This document shows, piece by piece, positions 12,610-51,336 of a DNA stretch of 64,000 bases. Every line of letters begins with the position of its first letter. The stretch's first letter is position 1. A program made the position numbers and the translations under genes. The DNA is taken from the NCBI GenBank assembly GCA_038064015.1, contig JBBTUB010000015.1:7093-71092 (forward strand), given 5' to 3'. Under the pieces are notes generated by a model. The model ran no database searches. It worked only from the letters and a program-made list of their open reading frames with translations, and was not told where the DNA came from. This stretch comes from Patescibacteria group bacterium (GTDB lineage Bacteria > Patescibacteriota > Minisyncoccia > 2-02-FULL-40-12 > IGHO2-01-FULL-4-A).

Positions 12610-15036
12610 ATGAGATCTAAGAGAATAAAAACAGCCATCGTTGCGCTACTCTTGCTCGCGATGCTCATCACACCGTTGGCGAGTGCGCAGGCGGGATCTT
12701 GGACTGATTATGTGACAGGAATATTAAAAGACGCTGCATGTGCAACGCCACTGGCAATTCTCAATCTAGAGGGGTGCGTTCTTCCGCCTCTTCTCAGCAT
12801 CGTAGGAACTATGGTTTCATGGTCAGCTGCTTTGCTGAATTGGCTTTTGGGGGCAAGCCAAGCTTTAGCGGCTCCCGATATCATCAGGTCATCGTGGGTA
12901 ATTTTTAGAGATTTCGTGAATATGTTTTTTATCCTCGCACTGATTATCATGGCATTTGGCACAATCTTCAATGTTAAAAACTATACGTTTAAAGAATTGT
13001 TTCCTCGATTTCTTTTCTCCGCACTGCTCATCAACTTTAGCTTAGAGATTGGCGTGTACGTACTGCGGGTTGCGAACGGTCTGGCTAGCGTATTTCTTGC
13101 CACCATCGGCGATGTCGGTGCCCGCCTTGCTGATGGACTCTTAATAACCAAAATAGCTTCACCGGAAGGCTTATCGGGAACTGCTGCGGCGGCACTAAAA
13201 GGAGTAGCTAGTGGGCCCGGGACTGCGATCACCATGCTTGCGTTCCTCGTATTCCTTATCATCATTTTGGGAACATTTTTGGCAGCGTCGATATTTATTC
13301 TTGCCCGCATTGTGGTCATTTGGTTTCTGCTTATCGTATCGCCGGTTGCGTGGTTTGGGTACACCTTACCGAGCCTACGGGCTGAGACGTGGAGTAAATG
13401 GTGGAAGGCATTTATCAGCTGGTCGTTTTTCCTCCCGACGTACTTATTTTTCATCATGTTCGCCTCTATTTTGTTGAGTGCGAAGAAGACTGTTGGCCTT
13501 ACCGTTGGAGGATATGATAATACTCTTGCAGCCGGGGACTATGCTAAGGCATTCTTCGAGGTTATCGGCCTCACCGATCTCCTCTTTTTTATTCTAGTCA
13601 TTATCGTACTCTTAGGAGGTATCGCAGCGTCTTTTAAAATCGGAGGGCTTGCCGCCAATGGCGCGGGGGCGGTCATGAGCTTTGCGCATGGGAGAGTGAA
13701 AGCGCTCCCAATTTTCCCCACAAAAGGAGCGGGTGGAAAGTGGGTAGGGAGAAGTATCGGCGATTGGGAGGGGGGCGCCAAGCAGCTTGGTTCTAGAATC
13801 CTGAAGTCCGGAATACCGCCAATCCTACCGGGAGTTGGAAAAATTCCCGGTATTCTTCGAGCGTTATGGACCGGGCAAGAGGGGCAAGAAGTGGCGGAGA
13901 AGGCAGTTGGCCAGAGCCTTCAGAGCACGCTTGGGTATGGCAACCTTGCTGAAGGAATGAAAGCTGAAAAAGCCGCGATTGATCATGCGCGTGAGATGCT
14001 TAAGCATGACCCGAAATTCACAGAAAAACTTCGGGACGCAAAATTAAAAGCAGACCTAGGAGAGGGAACTGATCTCATTGATGGGTTCAATAGAATGAAC
14101 TTTGAAACGATTGCCGAGTATCAGGAGCTTGCTGCAAAAGGCATGCTTTCTCCACAAGCATTGCGTGCCTTTGGCACAAAAATCGGTGATCGTAACTCAG
14201 ATGCCATGAAAGACGTGGGAGAGGCTCTTGCAAAATCAAGTTTCGGCGGATGGAAAGAAGAAGATATTTCTGAATTCTTAAAAGCGAAAGAAGATGGGCC
14301 TTACGACATCAAAGGCATGAAGGGCGCTAGAAAGAAAGGCCATGAATGGCTCATTTCTGACGATGGAAAACGAAGAATGCTTGGGCATGAATCTATAACC
14401 CTTGACGTGGTGAATCAAATGGCGAAGGATTATGGACCAGACTCAAACGAGATGCGTGGAGCTCTTCGCGAAATAGCCACAAAGCGAGCTGATCTTGCCG
14501 GAGAGTACAAAGCAATAGCGAAAGCAAAGGCCGAAGGAAGGGAATCCGCCACGGATGCTGAAGTCACAACTGCTACTCAGGAAGTTATTGAAGACAAAAC
14601 AGAACACGAATTAATGAGTATGAGTAAGATCGCTTTTGGGCAGGAGAGATTCATGCAAGCGGTATTAGGAAAACTTGAAAGCCTGCAATCAAAAGTCCCC
14701 ATGGGAGAATACGAAGATAAGTTCGATGCAGGTGCTATGGCAAAATACGTCCAAGGCATGCGGTCAGCGGGCGCGAGCGTCACAGATTTTCAAGAAAAAA
14801 TGCAGGATTTGACCAACGCACTCGGAAAAAATCGTGACGAACTTACGGTAAAAATACGTAACGCAGAAGGTAGAATTGAAGAAAGATCGATACATAACTA
14901 TAAGGAGGCCCTCGATATGGCCGCAAGCGAGAAGAAAGAGTGGGACATCAGGCGTCAAATTGCGGCTGATGAAAGACGTGATGATGCAAAGTTTGCCCGA
15001 GGGACTCGAGGACGCGGACCTAGAAGAACCACATGA
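12610..15036 (+). CDS. TrbL/VirB6-like polytopic inner-membrane protein with long hydrophilic coiled-coil C-terminal extension
   Basis: ATG at 12610, in frame with the 12574 ORF. Signal peptide, then at least 6 TM helices (aa ~60-360), then a ~440-aa Lys/Glu/Ala-rich tail. Architecture typical of TrbL/VirB6 family. Confidence 0.5.
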   Translation: MRSKRIKTAIVALLLLAMLITPLASAQAGSWTDYVTGILKDAACATPLAILNLEGCVLPPLLSIVGTMVSWSAALLNWLLGASQALAAPDIIRSSWVIFRDFVNMFFILALIIMAFGTIFNVKNYTFKELFPRFLFSALLINFSLEIGVYVLRVANGLASVFLATIGDVGARLADGLLITKIASPEGLSGTAAAALKGVASGPGTAITMLAFLVFLIIILGTFLAASIFILARIVVIWFLLIVSPVAWFGYTLPSLRAETWSKWWKAFISWSFFLPTYLFFIMFASILLSAKKTVGLTVGGYDNTLAAGDYAKAFFEVIGLTDLLFFILVIIVLLGGIAASFKIGGLAANGAGAVMSFAHGRVKALPIFPTKGAGGKWVGRSIGDWEGGAKQLGSRILKSGIPPILPGVGKIPGILRALWTGQEGQEVAEKAVGQSLQSTLGYGNLAEGMKAEKAAIDHAREMLKHDPKFTEKLRDAKLKADLGEGTDLIDGFNRMNFETIAEYQELAAKGMLSPQALRAFGTKIGDRNSDAMKDVGEALAKSSFGGWKEEDISEFLKAKEDGPYDIKGMKGARKKGHEWLISDDGKRRMLGHESITLDVVNQMAKDYGPDSNEMRGALREIATKRADLAGEYKAIAKAKAEGRESATDAEVTTATQEVIEDKTEHELMSMSKIAFGQERFMQAVLGKLESLQSKVPMGEYEDKFDAGAMAKYVQGMRSAGASVTDFQEKMQDLTNALGKNRDELTVKIRNAEGRIEERSIHNYKEALDMAASEKKEWDIRRQIAADERRDDAKFARGTRGRGPRRTT

Positions 15037-15500
15037 CATCCTACACCATCTACATCCCCGGAGAAGTTGATCTCCAAGAGATACTCCAAAGCCCATTGAT
15101 CTGGAAAGAATTTCAGCAACGCTGGGCGGTCGGCTCCCCGCGGCTCTCGGATTTGCTTTTCGGAGTCGACACAATGAACAAGATGATCGATATCAGCGTA
15201 GATTTCGAGCTGACCGATGAGCAGACCGCCAATGTATCTCGCGCGGTACGTGATATTGCGCTAGGCTATGTGTATATTGGCGATTTGGCCGCGGTGTTGC
15301 AAAAGCAACTTGGCATTGAGCAAAAGATTGCTTCGGAAATTGGTGGGAGCGCGTTGGAAATCCTCCGTCCCTGCATGGATGAAATCAAGAAAATCCAGCT
15401 CGCACGCTTTCGAAATCGTATCGAGCAAGCGGCGACAAAGCCGATAGATCAGCCGAAGCAGGAAAACACAAGCAATATTATTAACTTACGAAAACCATGA
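15033..15500 (+). CDS. hypothetical cytoplasmic protein (T4SS-like cluster)
   Basis: 155-aa ORF translationally coupled (ATGA overlap) to the VirB6-like gene. No recognisable motifs. Confidence 0.4.
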   Translation: MTSYTIYIPGEVDLQEILQSPLIWKEFQQRWAVGSPRLSDLLFGVDTMNKMIDISVDFELTDEQTANVSRAVRDIALGYVYIGDLAAVLQKQLGIEQKIASEIGGSALEILRPCMDEIKKIQLARFRNRIEQAATKPIDQPKQENTSNIINLRKP

Positions 15501-15805
15501 GATTCCACGTCCCACAATTCATCGAAAAAGAAAACAAAATCATCGGGCCGTTGACACTCCGGCAATTCCTTTGGCTATTGATTGGCGGAGGGCTGTTCTT
15601 GATCGTAAAGATTTTTCTTTCGGGAATGCCTTTGATAATAGCCCTGGTGGTGATCGCCGCACTTTCCCTGGCCATGGCATATGCTAGAATCAATGATGTA
15701 TCCCTGCCGCGCTACACGCTGATGGCATTTAACTTTCTGATCATGGGAAAGCGCTATACCTACACGAAAGAAGAAAACGAAAATATTACATGGCAAAAAA
15801 AATAG
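15497..15805 (+). CDS. VirB3/PrgI-like small two-TM membrane protein
   Basis: 102 aa with two hydrophobic helices (LWLLIGGGLFLIVKIFL / LIIALVVIAALSLAMAY). Lies immediately upstream of and overlapping the VirB4 gene, as in Gram-positive-type T4SS (PrgI/TcpE position). Confidence 0.4.
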   Translation: MRFHVPQFIEKENKIIGPLTLRQFLWLLIGGGLFLIVKIFLSGMPLIIALVVIAALSLAMAYARINDVSLPRYTLMAFNFLIMGKRYTYTKEENENITWQKK

Positions 15806-16425
15806 GCTCTAACACCAAGCAATTTGTAGACATCGCCGATGTGCGAGGCTCATTAGTCCTGCTCAAAGACGGCTCACTTCGCTCAATTATTTCCGTCGAG
15901 TCGGTGAACTTTGATCTCAAGTCTCCTGACGAGCAGACCGCGATCCTGCAGGGATTCCAGAGCTTGGTCAACGCGCTCGATTTCCCGCTCCAGATCGTGG
16001 TCACGTCACGCACGCTCGATCTCAGTAATTATTTAGAGCTCCTGGAAGTTACCCAAACAAAACTTACCAACGAGTTGCTCAAAACCCAACTCACCGAATA
16101 CGCAAAGTTCATCCAAGACCTCACGAAGCTTGCCAATGTCATGGAAAAGAAATTCTATGTCGTCGTACCATATCATGCCATCGAGGCGGTTAAGAATAAC
16201 ACCGGTTTTTTGGGAAAATTAAAAGACCTCTTCTCCGCCACTCGCCATGCTGCGGCGCTCACGGAAGAAAACGAGAAACAATATGGCAAGCAGGTTGAGC
16301 AGCGGGTTGCTGTCGTGTTGTCGGGGCTTTCGCCGCTTGGCGTGAAAACAAAGCTTCTCGAACACGACGAGCTCTTGCAAATCTTCCAGCGCCTCTATAA
16401 CCCGGGACAAGTTCTCCCCACATAA
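15790..16425 (+). CDS. VirB4-family T4SS ATPase, N-terminal domain fragment (split gene)
   Basis: IADVRGSLVLLKDGSLRSIISVESVNFDLKSPDEQTAILQGFQSLVNAL resembles the N-terminal region of Gram-positive VirB4/TcpF/PrgJ-like proteins. Ends TAA at 16423-16425, 5 nt before the ATPase ORF, which is in another frame. Confidence 0.55.
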   Translation: MAKKIGSNTKQFVDIADVRGSLVLLKDGSLRSIISVESVNFDLKSPDEQTAILQGFQSLVNALDFPLQIVVTSRTLDLSNYLELLEVTQTKLTNELLKTQLTEYAKFIQDLTKLANVMEKKFYVVVPYHAIEAVKNNTGFLGKLKDLFSATRHAAALTEENEKQYGKQVEQRVAVVLSGLSPLGVKTKLLEHDELLQIFQRLYNPGQVLPT

Positions 16426-16430
16426 ACCCA

Positions 16431-18179
16431 ATGGATACCACTCCCCAAGAAAAAACAGTTGATGAAATCCTTGCTCCCTCGGCGGTCTCGCTGGGAGCAA
16501 ACGACATGCAAATCGGCGAAAAGTACGTACGGACGATTTTTGTCGCCACCTATCCACGCTATCTCAATACCGGATGGTTTGCGCCCATTATCAACTTAGA
16601 CAAGGAATTTGACGTTGCTTTTTTCATCCACCCGGAAAATTCCGCCGAGGTACTTAAAAAACTTCGCGACCAGCTTGGCCGTCTTGAAGCGGAAGCTATG
16701 GAAGAACAAGCCGCGGGAAAAGTGCGCAACCCGGCACTCCAGACCGGGATTAACGACATTGAGGAACTGCGGGATGCGCTCCAGCAGGGAACGGAGAAAT
16801 TTTATCAGGTCGGCTTGTATATCACGCTGTACGGCAAGACGCAGCAAGACCTGAATGAGCTTGAAAGCTCAATCCGTGGGACCCTCGAAGCCCAGCTTAT
16901 TTACACGAAGCCGGCAACATTCCGCATGAAGGAAGGCTTTGTCTCAACCTTGCCGTTGGGATTGGACAAACTGAACATCCAAACGTCTCTTAATACCGAG
17001 CCGCTTTCTTCGATGTTTCCGTTTGTTTCGTATGATTTATCGCTGGATCGGGGCATTTTGTACGGGATCAACTTGCACAACAATTCTCTCGTGCTGTTTG
17101 ACCGCTTTTCGCTTGAGAATGCCAACACGATCATCCTCGGCAAATCAGGAGGAGGGAAAAGCTACACGATAAAACTTGAGATCCTACGAAGCCTGATGTT
17201 TGGCACCCAGGTGTTCGTGATCGACCCGGAGAACGAATACAAATACCTCTCGGACATGGTGGGGGGGACTTCCGTGCGCATCTCAATCTCCTCTGAAGAT
17301 CACCTCAACCCCTTTGATCTCCCCAAGCCTCGCGCCGATGAGACGCCGGCCGATGTGCTGCGCTCGCACATCGTTGACTTGGGAGGATTCTTTAAGCTTC
17401 TCATGGGAACTATCACTCCTCAAGAAGATGGGATTCTCGACGAGGCGATCCGGCAAACGTATGCTTCACGCGACATCACCGCTACTTCTGATTTCTCGAA
17501 AATCGAACCTCCGCTGATGTCGGATTTCCAAAGCGTCCTCTCCGGCATGGAGGGAACCGAGTCACTGTTGCTGCGAATCAAAAAATATACCGAGGGAAGT
17601 TTTTCGGGCTTTCTGAATAACCCCACCAATGTACGCCTCGATAACCAATTAATAGTCTTTTCCATCCGGGATATGGAAGATGAGCTGAAGCCGGTCGCCA
17701 TGTATCTGGTGCTGAATTTTATCTGGAGCCAGGTTCGCTCGGAAATACGCCAGCGGTTGCTGATCGTTGACGAAGCGTGGCTCATCATGCGCTACGAGGC
17801 GGGAGGACTTTTTCTTTTCAATATTGCCAAACGCGCGCGGAAATACTACCTTGGGCTTACGGCGGTCTCCCAGGACATCCCGGACTTTATGAGTTCGCAA
17901 TACGGCAAGCCGATTATTACCAACTCATCGCTCCAGATCCTCCTGAAACAGTCACCGACAACGATTGATCTGGTAAAAGACACGTTCCACCTCACGGATG
18001 CTGAGAAATTCTTCTTGCTGGAGGCGCAGGTGGGACATGGGCTTTTCTTCGCTGGAAACAGCCATGTGGCAATTCGGATCATTTCCTCCTATGCTGAAGA
18101 TCAGATCATTACGTCCGACCCGCGCCAAATCCTCGATATCGAGGCGGCAAAGCGCGAGCTGGCGGAACAAGCTTCATAA
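16431..18179 (+). CDS. VirB4-family T4SS ATPase, C-terminal ATPase domain (split gene)
   Basis: Walker A IILGKSGGGKS, Walker B LLIVDEAW, arginine finger region, VFVIDPENEY. YVRTIFVATYPRYLNTGWF motif typical of VirB4. Confidence 0.8.
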   Translation: MDTTPQEKTVDEILAPSAVSLGANDMQIGEKYVRTIFVATYPRYLNTGWFAPIINLDKEFDVAFFIHPENSAEVLKKLRDQLGRLEAEAMEEQAAGKVRNPALQTGINDIEELRDALQQGTEKFYQVGLYITLYGKTQQDLNELESSIRGTLEAQLIYTKPATFRMKEGFVSTLPLGLDKLNIQTSLNTEPLSSMFPFVSYDLSLDRGILYGINLHNNSLVLFDRFSLENANTIILGKSGGGKSYTIKLEILRSLMFGTQVFVIDPENEYKYLSDMVGGTSVRISISSEDHLNPFDLPKPRADETPADVLRSHIVDLGGFFKLLMGTITPQEDGILDEAIRQTYASRDITATSDFSKIEPPLMSDFQSVLSGMEGTESLLLRIKKYTEGSFSGFLNNPTNVRLDNQLIVFSIRDMEDELKPVAMYLVLNFIWSQVRSEIRQRLLIVDEAWLIMRYEAGGLFLFNIAKRARKYYLGLTAVSQDIPDFMSSQYGKPIITNSSLQILLKQSPTTIDLVKDTFHLTDAEKFFLLEAQVGHGLFFAGNSHVAIRIISSYAEDQIITSDPRQILDIEAAKRELAEQAS

Positions 18180-18182
18180 TCC

Positions 18183-18719
18183 ATGGATGCACAAGACAAC
18201 ATCTACTCATTCCAACTTGCGCAAGAGCGGCGGCGGGCGCAGCTTCAGGGCGCCGAAGACCAGGAACAAAAACGCCAAGAACAAGCTGATCAGAAGCTTT
18301 TTAGGAGCGTCTTGAAAATTTCGATTATTTTGGACGCGATTGATATCGTATCACTCGGCACGATCGGCTGGTTTATTGGATGTATTGGAGATCTTTACCT
18401 CTACAAAAAAACTGGCCAATCAAAAGCCGGGCGCGCGCAAAAGAAAAAAATCATCATCGCGATCGTGGGAGAGAAAATTCCGATCGTAAATATTTTGCCC
18501 TTGAGGACGATTATGGCAATATTCTCAAACCCCAAAATTATGGCAAAAATTGCTCAGCGACTGCAGACTGCCAGTAAAATTCTCAACGTCGCCGCTAAAA
18601 TCCCGACACCGATCGCCCCAGAGCTCAAAGCCGCATCAAAAGTCGTAAATCTAGCAAATAGGAGAACTCAGATGGGGGCTCGAATGCTTAATACAAATGT
18701 AACTAATAAAGCGGCATGA
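18183..18719 (+). CDS. hypothetical membrane protein (T4SS-like cluster)
   Basis: 178 aa. Gln/Glu-rich N-terminus, one or two TM helices (ISIILDAIDIVSLGTIGWFIGCIG). Lys-rich. Confidence 0.4.
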   Translation: MDAQDNIYSFQLAQERRRAQLQGAEDQEQKRQEQADQKLFRSVLKISIILDAIDIVSLGTIGWFIGCIGDLYLYKKTGQSKAGRAQKKKIIIAIVGEKIPIVNILPLRTIMAIFSNPKIMAKIAQRLQTASKILNVAAKIPTPIAPELKAASKVVNLANRRTQMGARMLNTNVTNKAA

Positions 18720-19783
18720 AAAACATCATGAAATTCATGCTCTTGCTCTTCGTGGTTGCCGGGGTTTCCTTTGGCGCTTCGCTTGGGTTCAGTCAATGGC
18801 GCGACGCGAGGGTCACTGACAACCTGGACGCCAATGTGCTGCGCAGATTCGAAGGCCGAGAACCTCAACCAACGGAAAAAGGCTCGATCAAGCTGACAAC
18901 CGAGGAGGCGAGTTTTTTCCACGTCATACCCAACAAACAAGAAATTCGCTACTATCATGCCCGGACGGGCCAGATCAAATCTCTATCGTCGGCCAGGACA
19001 GCAAAGCCCGCCCTACTCGCCACGATCAAGCCGCGCGCGAGCGATCTCACGTGGTCACCTGATGGCACGGAAATCATCGCATCGTATGGTACCGAGCGAA
19101 TCTATGTGAACGTGACGGCCAGCACGCAGACCAAGCTCGACGCAAATATCCTCAATCCAAAATTCGGACCGGTATCTGATTCGGTTGCCTATCTTTATTT
19201 CGATAAAAAAACAGAGGCCGGGGTGATCAGCATCGCGGACTCGCAGTTTAAGACCTTTAAGAATCTTCTCAAGACACGCCTGAGCACCTGGGAGATCCAG
19301 TGGGCCGATGAGCGCAAACTTTCACTTCTTGCCGCGCCGCCCTCCTCGCGCCTACAATCCCTCTACCTCCTCACCATCGATCAGGAAGGGCTGGATATAC
19401 TCATCGACTCAAAGACTGACATCGAAACGAATTGGTCGCCCGACGGGCAACACCTTCTGTACTCCCGGAAAACGCAAAACGGGATCGAGCTATTCTTACT
19501 TGATCTTGCCACGCGAGCCGAAAAGCCACTCGAAATATCAAGTATGGCATCGAAATGCGGATGGACCTCTGATAGTAGCACGCTGTATTGCGGAGTCCCG
19601 GAAAAAGACTCTGACGATGCTATACTGAAAATTTCGATGACGGGTACTCAAGAAAAAATCTTTGCCCCCGCCGATGCGGGATTTGTAGATGCACGAAATA
19701 TCGTATACATTCCGATCCAAAACGCATTGCTTTTCAAGAACTTCAAAGACGGGCGGCTCTATCTTTTATCGCTGGCCAAATAA
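18716..19783 (+). CDS. secreted TolB-like beta-propeller protein (PD40/WD40-like repeats)
   Basis: Signal peptide MKNIMKFMLLLFVVAGVSFGASLG. Repeated WSPDGTEII / WSPDGQHLLYS motifs typical of TolB/PD40 beta-propellers. Confidence 0.55.
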   Translation: MKNIMKFMLLLFVVAGVSFGASLGFSQWRDARVTDNLDANVLRRFEGREPQPTEKGSIKLTTEEASFFHVIPNKQEIRYYHARTGQIKSLSSARTAKPALLATIKPRASDLTWSPDGTEIIASYGTERIYVNVTASTQTKLDANILNPKFGPVSDSVAYLYFDKKTEAGVISIADSQFKTFKNLLKTRLSTWEIQWADERKLSLLAAPPSSRLQSLYLLTIDQEGLDILIDSKTDIETNWSPDGQHLLYSRKTQNGIELFLLDLATRAEKPLEISSMASKCGWTSDSSTLYCGVPEKDSDDAILKISMTGTQEKIFAPADAGFVDARNIVYIPIQNALLFKNFKDGRLYLLSLAK

Positions 19784-32808: not shown

Positions 32809-34452
32809 TTACTCTCCTATGACCCGCATAACTTCATCGATTGACGTGATCCCATGGGCTGCCTTCATCAAAGCGTCTTGCAACATGGTTGTCAATCCTT
32901 TTTGAATCGCCATCTCCTGGACTTCGGCAAGTGCGGGGGATTTTAAGATTAATTTTTGCATATCGGCATCGATCTCAAATATTTCATAGGCTCCCACCCG
33001 TCCCTTATAGCCGCTGTTATTGCACGCTTGGCACCCTGCTGAGTAAAAAATCTCCATCTTCTCGTTGATTTCTGGAGCGGTTACGATCGAGGGCAGGCGC
33101 GCGAGATGTCGCTTGAGTAATTCATAGTCTTCGTGCTTGATCGGCGTCTTCTTTTTGCACGCCTCGCATAAGCGTCGCACGAGGCGCTGGGCCATGGCCG
33201 CATTGATCGCCGGAGCGATCGTAACCGGGCGCACGCCAAGGTCGATCAGGCGGGGGATGGTTCCCGCCGCGTTGTTGGTATGGATCGTCGAAAGCACCAG
33301 GTGACCGGTCAGTGCCGCTTGCATGGCGATCTCAGCAGTTTCTTGATCGCGGATTTCGCCGACAAGGATCGCGTCCGGGTCTTGGCGGACGATCGAGCGA
33401 AGTCCCGCCGCAAACGTGTAGCCCGCTTTCGTATTGACCTGGGTCTGACTAATTCCCTGGATATGGTACTCAATAGGATCCTCGATCGTGATGATTTTGA
33501 TGTCGGGAGTGTTGATGTGTTTTACAAAAGCATACAGGGTGGTTGTTTTTCCTGATCCGGTGGGACCGGTAGTAAGAATGGTGCCGGTATTTTTTTGTAA
33601 AAGTTTTTTGATAAGGGCCAGGGTATCTTCGCGCATGCCAAGGTCCTCCAATTTCTGGCGTATGGAAGATGGATCTAGGATACGCATGACGATGTTTTCA
33701 CCATAGGCGCCCGGCAAGATGGAAACGCGCACCTCAATATCTTTTTCTTTCAGGCGGATCGTAAATCTTCCATCCTGGGGAGTTTGGTGGACATTGATTT
33801 TGAGTCCGGAATCTAATTTGATTCTGGATAAAATGCTCGGGAATCCCGCAGGAGAAAAATTAACCACATCGGTGAGAACGCCGTCGAGACGATAGCGAAG
33901 ACGGATGGTATGCTCTTCAGGCTCGAAGTGGATATCAGAGGCTCCAATTTTGAGGGCCCCCGCAATGAGGGCGTTGATCACCTGTGTGATCGGGAGCACG
34001 GTGATGCGCTCCTGCAAATCCTTCATGCCTTGAATCTGATTCTGCAGATTCAAAATTTCTTCCTCGCTGATGCTCATCACTCCCCGAGCTTCTAGGGAGG
34101 TTTTTTTCTTGAGTTTGTATCGCTCCAATGCAAGGTTGAGGCTATGAAGCGATGTCACGACCATATTCGTACTCAGGCCCCTTTGGGTGAGGTTTTGCAG
34201 GATTGACTGAAGATGTGGGTTTGCCGGATCAAGAACGGCAATAGTGATCAAAGCTCCGTTTTTGGAAATTGCCGCAACATTAGCTTTTCGAGCATCCGCT
34301 TCGTCAATAAGAAAAAGGGCGCTGTTATCTATTGGGAATGCGCCAAGATTAATGTATTGCAAGCCTGCCTGTTGGGCGATTTGCTTGGAATTGGCCTCGA
34401 GGCGGCGATCCTCAATCTCCGTCATTTTTTTATCGATGTCGGTCTCTGACAT
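32809..34452 (-). CDS. GspE/PilB-family secretion ATPase (type IV pilus assembly / T2SS ATPase)
   Basis: Walker A GPTGSGKTTTLYA, Asp box, Walker B ILVGEIRD, His box, tetracysteine CEACK...CQAC zinc motif. N-terminal GSPII-like domain. Confidence 0.85.
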   Translation of the reverse strand: MSETDIDKKMTEIEDRRLEANSKQIAQQAGLQYINLGAFPIDNSALFLIDEADARKANVAAISKNGALITIAVLDPANPHLQSILQNLTQRGLSTNMVVTSLHSLNLALERYKLKKKTSLEARGVMSISEEEILNLQNQIQGMKDLQERITVLPITQVINALIAGALKIGASDIHFEPEEHTIRLRYRLDGVLTDVVNFSPAGFPSILSRIKLDSGLKINVHQTPQDGRFTIRLKEKDIEVRVSILPGAYGENIVMRILDPSSIRQKLEDLGMREDTLALIKKLLQKNTGTILTTGPTGSGKTTTLYAFVKHINTPDIKIITIEDPIEYHIQGISQTQVNTKAGYTFAAGLRSIVRQDPDAILVGEIRDQETAEIAMQAALTGHLVLSTIHTNNAAGTIPRLIDLGVRPVTIAPAINAAMAQRLVRRLCEACKKKTPIKHEDYELLKRHLARLPSIVTAPEINEKMEIFYSAGCQACNNSGYKGRVGAYEIFEIDADMQKLILKSPALAEVQEMAIQKGLTTMLQDALMKAAHGITSIDEVMRVIGE

Positions 34453-51060: not shown

Positions 51061-51185
51061 TCGACTCTCGGCTCGCCGTCGCTCGCCTCGGTCTAGCCAC
51101 CGCCTCGCGTTATGATGTACTCATCATAACATGCTCCGGCGTTCTCATCCCTCCGCACGTCACGCCGGTGACGTGCTCATCGCAG

Positions 51186-51258
51186 TGCGCGCTGAGGGAT
51201 TCGAACCCCCGACCCTCTCGGTGTAAACGAGATGCTCTAACCGCTGAGCTAAGCGCGC
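51186..51258 (-). tRNA. tRNA-Val (anticodon UAC)
   Basis: Acceptor GCGCGCU/AGCGCGC. Anticodon loop UUUACAC. T-arm GGGGG-UUCGAAU-CCCUC. Confidence 0.85.
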
Positions 51259-51264
51259 CGACAG

Positions 51265-51336
51265 TGGGCGTGCCAGGGATCGAACCTGGGACCCGCGACT
51301 TATAAGATCGCTGCTCTACCGCTGAGCTACACGCCC
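51265..51336 (-). tRNA. tRNA with anticodon UAU (tRNA-Ile2-like, reads AUA)
   Basis: Acceptor GGGCGUG/CACGCCC. Anticodon stem GCGAU/GUCGC (one G:U). Loop CUUAUAA. T-loop UUCGAUC. Confidence 0.6.

Follow-up and report, generated by a model that had tools for sequence, protein, structure and literature searches.

Within a 64,000-nucleotide (nt) stretch of the genome of a Patescibacteria group bacterium (GenBank assembly GCA_038064015.1, contig JBBTUB010000015.1; the whole stretch is termed the window), a run of forward-strand genes includes two adjacent open reading frames (ORFs) that correspond to parts of VirB4, the ATPase of type IV secretion systems (T4SSs). An earlier reading made from the letters alone (the sequence-only reading) had located a 211-amino acid (aa) ORF, its TAA stop codon and, in another frame, the ATG of a 582-aa ORF, and all of these coordinates were confirmed (Table 1). 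For the interruption it had offered three explanations: an authentic split, a recent frameshift or pseudogenization, or an assembly error. The evidence presented below makes us highly confident that the two ORFs, here termed ORF1 and ORF2, are an authentic and conserved two-gene VirB4. The genes are part of a chromosomal Patescibacteria T4SS of the Gram-positive kind (MPF-FATA, pGO1/pSK41-like).

Table 1. Positions of the T4SS genes, their neighbours and dnaA in the window.
Feature	Coordinates	Strand	Remarks
Candidate VirB6-like channel subunit (putative assignment), 820 aa	12574..15036	+	Hydrophobic N-terminal half, long hydrophilic/charged C-terminal part
155-aa protein, function unassigned	15033..15500	+	4-nt overlap with the neighbour on each side
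PrgI family (VirB3-like) small membrane protein, 102 aa	15497..15805	+	Pfam PF12666 PrgI
ORF1, TrsD-like protein, 211 aa	15790..16425	+	ATG start; separate gene
Junction of ORF1 and ORF2	16423..16430	+	ORF1 TAA (16423-16425) and 5-nt spacer ACCCA (16426-16430)
ORF2, VirB4-type T4SS ATPase, 582 aa	16431..18179	+	ATG start at 16431
178-aa protein, function unassigned	18183..18719	+	3 nt downstream of ORF2
355-aa protein	18716..19783	+	Hydrophobic N-terminus; last gene of the + strand run
dnaA	22811..24181	+	Pfam Bac_DnaA (5e-64), Bac_DnaA_C, DnaA_N

The junction between the two ORFs

ORF1 is overlapped by 16 nt at its beginning by the 3′ end of the upstream prgI gene. The starts of ORF1 and ORF2 are offset by 641 nt and the two ORFs therefore occupy different frames, with the frame of ORF2 open from position 16398, upstream of its ATG. 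The spacer that separates them is too short to accommodate a promoter or a terminator, which is consistent with translational coupling of the two genes. No slippery heptamer was seen at the window junction.

A 101-nt junction stretch is base-for-base identical in two contigs from the assemblies of other samples (ERZ1292627 and ERZ1292643). The source samples come from Hainich groundwater well H51. An identical ORF1 protein is encoded on those contigs, one of which is 99.985% identical to the window over 6.6 kb. In L085, a low-coverage contig (coverage 3.1) with an identical locus, the last ~170 bases (2441-2608) are unlike the window and the ATPase ORF ends early, at 257 aa; the end of this contig is probably chimeric.

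ORF2 is a VirB4-type ATPase that begins inside the N-terminal half

The translation of ORF2 contains ATYPRYLNTGWF, a Walker A motif (GKSGGGKS) and a Walker B motif (LLIVDEAW), as had been noted in the sequence-only reading, and the two Walker motifs align with the corresponding motifs of the ATPase encoded by the Staphylococcus plasmid pSK41. Four Pfam models match ORF2 above their cut-offs, namely P-loop_TraG (E 3e-24), AAA_10, DUF87 and CagE_TrbE_VirB. The model NF045971 ('VirB4-like conjugal transfer ATPase, CD1110 family') gives 343 bits against a curated cut-off of 325. A sequence search of the PDB returned the VirB4 C-terminal domain (4AG5) with an E value of 1.9e-43. The genomic surroundings agree with a T4SS assignment, in that a PrgI/VirB3-like gene is located two genes upstream of ORF2 in the window and likewise in contigs L084 and L085.

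The architecture of a single-chain VirB4, which includes the first ~180-200 residues, is not reproduced by ORF2 alone; ORF1 supplies the missing part. Specifically, ORF2 covers NF045971 profile positions 183-733 of 752, such that the first ~180 positions are missing. Moreover, residues 301-733 of VirB4 from plasmid R388 (TrwK/VirB4) align to ORF2 residues 105-527, which places the beginning of ORF2 at about residue 196 of a single-chain VirB4. Nevertheless, ~225 residues precede the Walker A motif in ORF2, and the Pfam domain PF03135 (CagE_TrbE_VirB) matches ORF2 residues 26-175. The break in VirB4 falls inside the N-terminal half of the protein, after approximately the first 180-200 residues. 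The sequence-only reading had labelled the two ORFs as the N-terminal domain and the ATPase domain. Its description of a two-part VirB4 stands, but the boundary it implied does not, since ORF2 keeps the PF03135 region.

ORF1 is a TrsD-like protein that corresponds to the missing part

ORF1 is a TrsD-like protein homologous to approximately the first 180-200 residues of fused VirB4. It carries IADVRGSLVLLKDGSLRSIISVESVNFDLKSPDEQ, the motif on which its original assignment to VirB4 had been based, and it matches positions 102-246 of 894 of the fused VirB4 model NF045975 (VirB4_plasma) with an E value of 2.6e-11. It also matches nearly all of the TrsD/TraD model NF041427, from position 27 to position 200 of 201 (E 8e-7), with a score of 29 bits against a cut-off of 200. 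The domain PF26593, described as 'TraC-like', is annotated in precomputed records on a protein identical to ORF1 and on all 120 of its listed homologues; our own search with ORF1 gave no match in a Pfam copy that lacked the PF26593 model.

Structure prediction also relates ORF1 to VirB4. With an alignment of 117 homologues, AlphaFold gave a model of ORF1 that has a mean predicted local distance difference test score (pLDDT) of 82.3 and a predicted template modelling score (pTM) of 0.71. When this model was compared with the PDB by using Foldseek, the 14 best matches were all R388 TrwK/VirB4 chains, 13 of them at a probability of 0.99-1.00 and one at 0.97, with query TM-scores of ~0.4-0.55. The next match after these 14 chains has a probability of only 0.18. 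A profile search of PDB sequences with the ORF1 alignment yielded a chance-level match only (4KFR, E 0.25), and the link between ORF1 and VirB4 structures thus required the predicted model and Foldseek.

One further database match was set aside. Residues 26-126 of ORF1 match positions 4-90 of 555 of phrog_2666, a family labelled 'terminase large subunit' (E 8e-9). We judged this label to be uninformative; the phage family may carry a region that resembles the VirB4 N terminus or may be mislabelled.

Taken together, the products of ORF1 and ORF2 cover the full VirB4. When the two sequences are joined in silico, residues 21-741 of the fusion align to positions 21-725 of 792 of the VirB4 model TIGR00929, with a score of 150.8 bits, compared with 132 bits before joining. 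Residues 159-758 align to positions 123-733 of NF045971, and here joining improves the score to 369.8 bits, compared with 343. With both models the fusion aligns as a single colinear stretch across the junction, and the check for contiguous coverage that had been proposed with the sequence-only reading was thereby passed.

The break point is conserved among related loci

A search of 5.8 billion clustered proteins recovered 262 homologues of ORF1. The best 120 of these measure 191-250 aa, show 40-58% identity and are without exception stand-alone proteins, none being fused to an ATPase. Their alignment has 11 invariant columns, and in every one of them a conserved Y-N-P motif lies just a few residues before the C terminus.

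Related loci were collected by scanning one genome per species. At least 562 were found, and 80 (L001-L080) were kept for analysis of the junction. All 80 share one layout: a stop codon terminates the ORF1 homologue at the same place (TAA in 59, TGA in 11 and TAG in 10), and a VirB4 homologue comes directly after it. Counted up to the earliest start codon in the frame of the ATPase, the distance between the two has a median of ~5 nt, with extremes of an 86-nt overlap and a 551-nt gap. Relative to the ORF1 homologue, the ATPase gene is in frame 0, 1 or 2 in 22, 28 and 30 of the loci respectively. The ORF2 homologues have their own start codons at a conserved position. A break point that remains the same while the frame, the spacing and the stop codon vary indicates two ordinary adjacent genes, and this pattern excludes both a recent frameshift and programmed recoding. 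The examination of orthologous loci, which had been suggested as a check, therefore identifies the authentic split as the correct option of the three, and what had been viewed as a possible anomaly is the standard arrangement.

Several loci in this collection have individual peculiarities. In three of them (L008, L059 and L070), the TrsD-like and VirB4 genes are 379-551 nt apart, a distance that could accommodate a small inserted gene. In five loci from Moranbacteria-type metagenome-assembled genomes (MAGs), namely L026 (5652-8027), L043 (5632-8139), L048, L051 and L078, the VirB4 ORF is 768-835 aa long and has an extra N-terminal extension of ~200 residues. The possibility that this extension is a second, fused TrsD-like domain was ruled out (hhalign probability 0.3%). 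The extension of these five ORFs has no Pfam match, and it may be a lineage-specific addition or the result of an over-called start codon. Finally, Patescibacteria-type trsD-virB4 loci with 37-44% identity occur in 'binchicken' and other third party annotation (TPA) MAGs whose titles name 'Bdellovibrionales', Pseudobdellovibrionaceae or Gammaproteobacteria (L030, L034, L039, L042, L044, L047, L049, L053, L057, L058, L068, L071, L078 and L080). The taxonomy of these records may be wrong, or the contigs may be mis-binned.

The same break point is present in plasmid conjugation systems

A close parallel is found in the TrsD/TraD and TrsE/TraE proteins of the staphylococcal conjugative plasmids pSK41 and pGO1 (NF041427; MPF-FATA), whose genes have the same order and the same break point as those of the window. 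In pSK41, a small gene in the trsC position is followed by trsD (227 aa) and by a gene for a 672-aa VirB4-type ATPase. The first of these is annotated as hypothetical and overlaps trsD, just as prgI overlaps ORF1. The ATPase is annotated as a 'DUF87 domain-containing protein' and corresponds to TraE/TrsE. ORF2 aligns with it end to end at 26% identity (E 2e-52), with residue 9 of ORF2 aligned to residue 34 of the pSK41 protein. The relationship between ORF1 and pSK41 TrsD is very distant (22% identity); alignment of the ORF1 profile to TrsD gives an hhalign probability of 82.6% and an E value of 9.6e-6 over 167 columns. The pSK41 system is plasmid-borne and conjugative and includes a relaxase and a coupling protein, whereas the cluster in the window is chromosomal.

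Searches with tblastn located ORF1 relatives on 138 plasmids, mostly from Firmicutes and haloarchaea. In the two that were opened, from Bacillus thuringiensis and Halobacterium, a PrgI-like gene is followed by the homologue and then by the ATPase gene. This order is similar to that of the window, but the middle gene is longer, with a product of 328-367 aa. The occurrence of the same break point in pSK41, together with the similar gene order in the Bacillus and haloarchaeal plasmids, indicates that the split is old and inherited and is no lesion of this genome.

The single-chain VirB4/TrwK/TraC/CagE proteins (TIGR00929; R388 TrwK, 7O41, 8RTB and 8RTD) are colinear with ORF1 plus ORF2, but consist of one polypeptide where the window encodes two. 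Scores of the window proteins with Gram-negative VirB4 models are far under the cut-offs. Some conjugative systems have VirB3-VirB4 fusions (Quinonero-Coronel et al., 2025; PMC12102498), which represent the opposite change, fusion rather than fission. Such fusions show that gene boundaries around VirB3 and the VirB4 N terminus are evolutionarily plastic.

TrsD homologues have been described in Patescibacteria

A recent survey identified 2,272 TrsD homologues in 2,221 Patescibacteria assemblies, 1,664 of which are associated with virB4 (Quinonero-Coronel et al., 2025). In this account, TrsD was the most abundant T4SS component found and has remote homology to the VirB4 N-terminal portion, and the widely distributed components are VirB4, TrsD, PrgI/VirB3, VirB6 and VirB2-like proteins. 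The clusters are often near dnaA; most have no relaxase and probably function in something other than conjugation, and no VirB3-VirB4 fusions were found in the phylum (Quinonero-Coronel et al., 2025). Epibiotic growth of Ca. Southlakia epibionticum ML1 was reported, from a transposon-insertion screen, to require the T4SS cluster, and the TrsD homologue adjacent to virB4 is among the genes listed as essential (Quinonero-Coronel et al., 2025). For the TrsD homology, the survey cites Guglielmini et al. (2014; PMC4027160), in whose main text the name TrsD is absent.

The published clusters agree with that of the window in phylum, in the gene pair, in chromosomal location and in the proximity of dnaA. 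The pairing of trsD and virB4 is thus already described and is nothing unusual in Patescibacteria or in pGO1/pSK41-type systems, and the window provides one more instance of a T4SS cluster near dnaA. The wording 'split VirB4', the conservation of the break point and the fold match do not appear in the survey; the latter two are added by the present analysis.

These results have a practical consequence for annotation. Neither genome scans nor pseudogene callers should report a broken virB4 where they meet the trsD-virB4 pair, whether in Patescibacteria or in Gram-positive elements of the pGO1/pSK41 type. Likewise, the label 'hypothetical protein', often given to the small gene, can be replaced by one that identifies its product as the N-terminal part of VirB4, detached from the rest.

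Alternative explanations

Some observations weigh against the assignment of ORF1 and ORF2 as a two-gene VirB4. The NF041427 score of ORF1 is far under the curated cut-off, which indicates that ORF1 is a distant relative of staphylococcal TrsD that lies outside that narrow subfamily. The Foldseek output is silent on which TrwK residues align with the ORF1 model, and the assignment of ORF1 to the N-terminal part of VirB4 therefore rests on sequence-profile coordinates. Upstream of the ORF2 ATG, nothing that resembles a Shine-Dalgarno motif is evident, which makes translational coupling a guess. Lastly, TrsD homologues of Gracilibacteria are not adjacent to virB4 (Quinonero-Coronel et al., 2025), which leaves room for a looser functional link between the two proteins.

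Among the alternatives, the one that retains some plausibility is that the TrsD-like protein is the product of a real separate gene with an independent role, such as that of an assembly factor or a substrate adaptor, and is not a subdomain of VirB4. The sequence match of ORF1 to VirB4 N termini is indeed remote. We nevertheless consider an independent role improbable, given the strict adjacency and tight spacing of the two genes in 80/80 loci and the shared break point in the pSK41-type system. The homology is also colinear, the fold match is to VirB4 itself and ORF2 lacks exactly the piece that ORF1 supplies.

Synthesis of a full-length VirB4 by programmed ribosomal frameshifting or stop-codon bypass is suggested by the fact that the two ORFs are only 5 nt apart in different frames and that a fused product would have the length of a normal VirB4. 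A recoding signal is difficult to reconcile with the use of all three relative frames (22/28/30), with spacings from -86 to +551 nt and with three different stop codons. The window junction moreover has no slippery heptamer, and the ORF2 homologues start at conserved-position codons of their own. We attach very little credence to recoding.

It is highly improbable that a once single-chain virB4 has undergone a recent frameshift or pseudogenization in this genome. A single insertion or deletion between 16398 and 16425 could join the ORFs into a protein of the 793-aa class, and models of full-length VirB4 align colinearly with the joined sequence. This option of the sequence-only reading is refuted by the homologues and the related loci: 0 of the 120 listed ORF1 homologues are fused to an ATPase, and the split recurs at one shared point in 80/80 loci, which between them use each of the three stop codons and each of the three frames. 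Furthermore, both halves are conserved across species at 40-58% identity, and pSK41 has the same break.

A spurious insertion or deletion introduced at the junction by assembly or sequencing, as might occur in a MAG such as the one that contains the window and as the L085 contig end with its truncated 257-aa ATPase ORF might suggest, is very unlikely as judged from the assembled contigs and deserves practically no weight, since the junction is identical in two independent contigs and the split is phylum-wide, which disposes of the last of the three options.

A possible role for the detached subdomain

Having weighed these alternatives, we return to ORF1 and ORF2 as an authentic two-gene VirB4. 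ORF1 is the counterpart of the first ~180-200 residues of the single-chain protein, and ORF2 provides the remainder, comprising the second half of the N-terminal region and the RecA-like ATPase domain. The order prgI/virB3, trsD-like gene, virB4, with a 16-nt overlap followed by a 5-nt gap, suggests that the three genes are probably co-transcribed and translationally coupled.

VirB3 is known to interact with VirB4 and to anchor it to the inner membrane (Quinonero-Coronel et al., 2025). When this knowledge is combined with the colinear homology and the match to the R388 TrwK/VirB4 fold, the TrsD-like protein is predicted to supply in trans, as a detached subdomain, the N-terminal piece that the VirB4 ATPase chain lacks. 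By binding both this chain and PrgI/VirB3, it would tether the ATPase to the membrane channel. We favour this specific docking role, albeit with only modest confidence.

It is conceivable, although doubtful, that detachment of the subdomain serves a purpose in Patescibacteria, for example by letting the cell set the stoichiometry or timing of VirB4 docking onto PrgI/VirB3, in a T4SS now adapted to host-dependent growth, or by allowing TrsD a second role that is independent of VirB4. The unlinked Gracilibacteria copies might suggest such a second role.

Neighbouring genes and other features of the window

The tightly packed run of + strand genes begins with the gene for the 820-aa protein, which has no match in Pfam or PHROG. 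Its placement as VirB6-like is based on its position in the operon and on hydrophobic segments read in the translation, and the protein heading this T4SS gene run may be a highly diverged 'extended VirB6'. The 155-aa protein encoded next is also without a match in Pfam and PHROG searches, and its gene is called in the independent contigs L084 and L085 as well. The PrgI family assignment of the 102-aa protein is based on a Pfam match with an E value of 1.4e-8 and a score of 35.5 bits against a cut-off of 27.

Downstream of ORF2, the 178-aa protein has no match in Pfam or PHROG, and the position of its gene is conserved in contig L084. The 355-aa protein that completes the run gives weak PD40 and Beta-prop_THOC3 signals, both below the Pfam cut-offs. 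The dnaA gene follows ~4.6 kb downstream of virB4, and the secretion-system cluster is thus located near the gene for the replication initiator, in agreement with the published siting of Patescibacteria T4SS clusters close to the origin of replication (Quinonero-Coronel et al., 2025).

Two features that lie farther away were also noted. A PilB-type T2SSE ATPase is encoded at 32809-34452 on the - strand (Pfam T2SSE, 1.6e-125, with an MshEN domain), which indicates that a type IV pilus system is present in the same 64-kb window as the T4SS. On the - strand at 51264-51336, ARAGORN predicts a tRNA-Ile with the anticodon UAU, adjoining a tRNA-Val(UAC) at 51185-51258. In most bacteria, AUA codons are read by a CAU tRNA modified with lysidine by TilS, and isoleucine tRNAs with a UAU anticodon are uncommon. 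The UAU tRNA-Ile may therefore bear on the decoding of AUA in this lineage.

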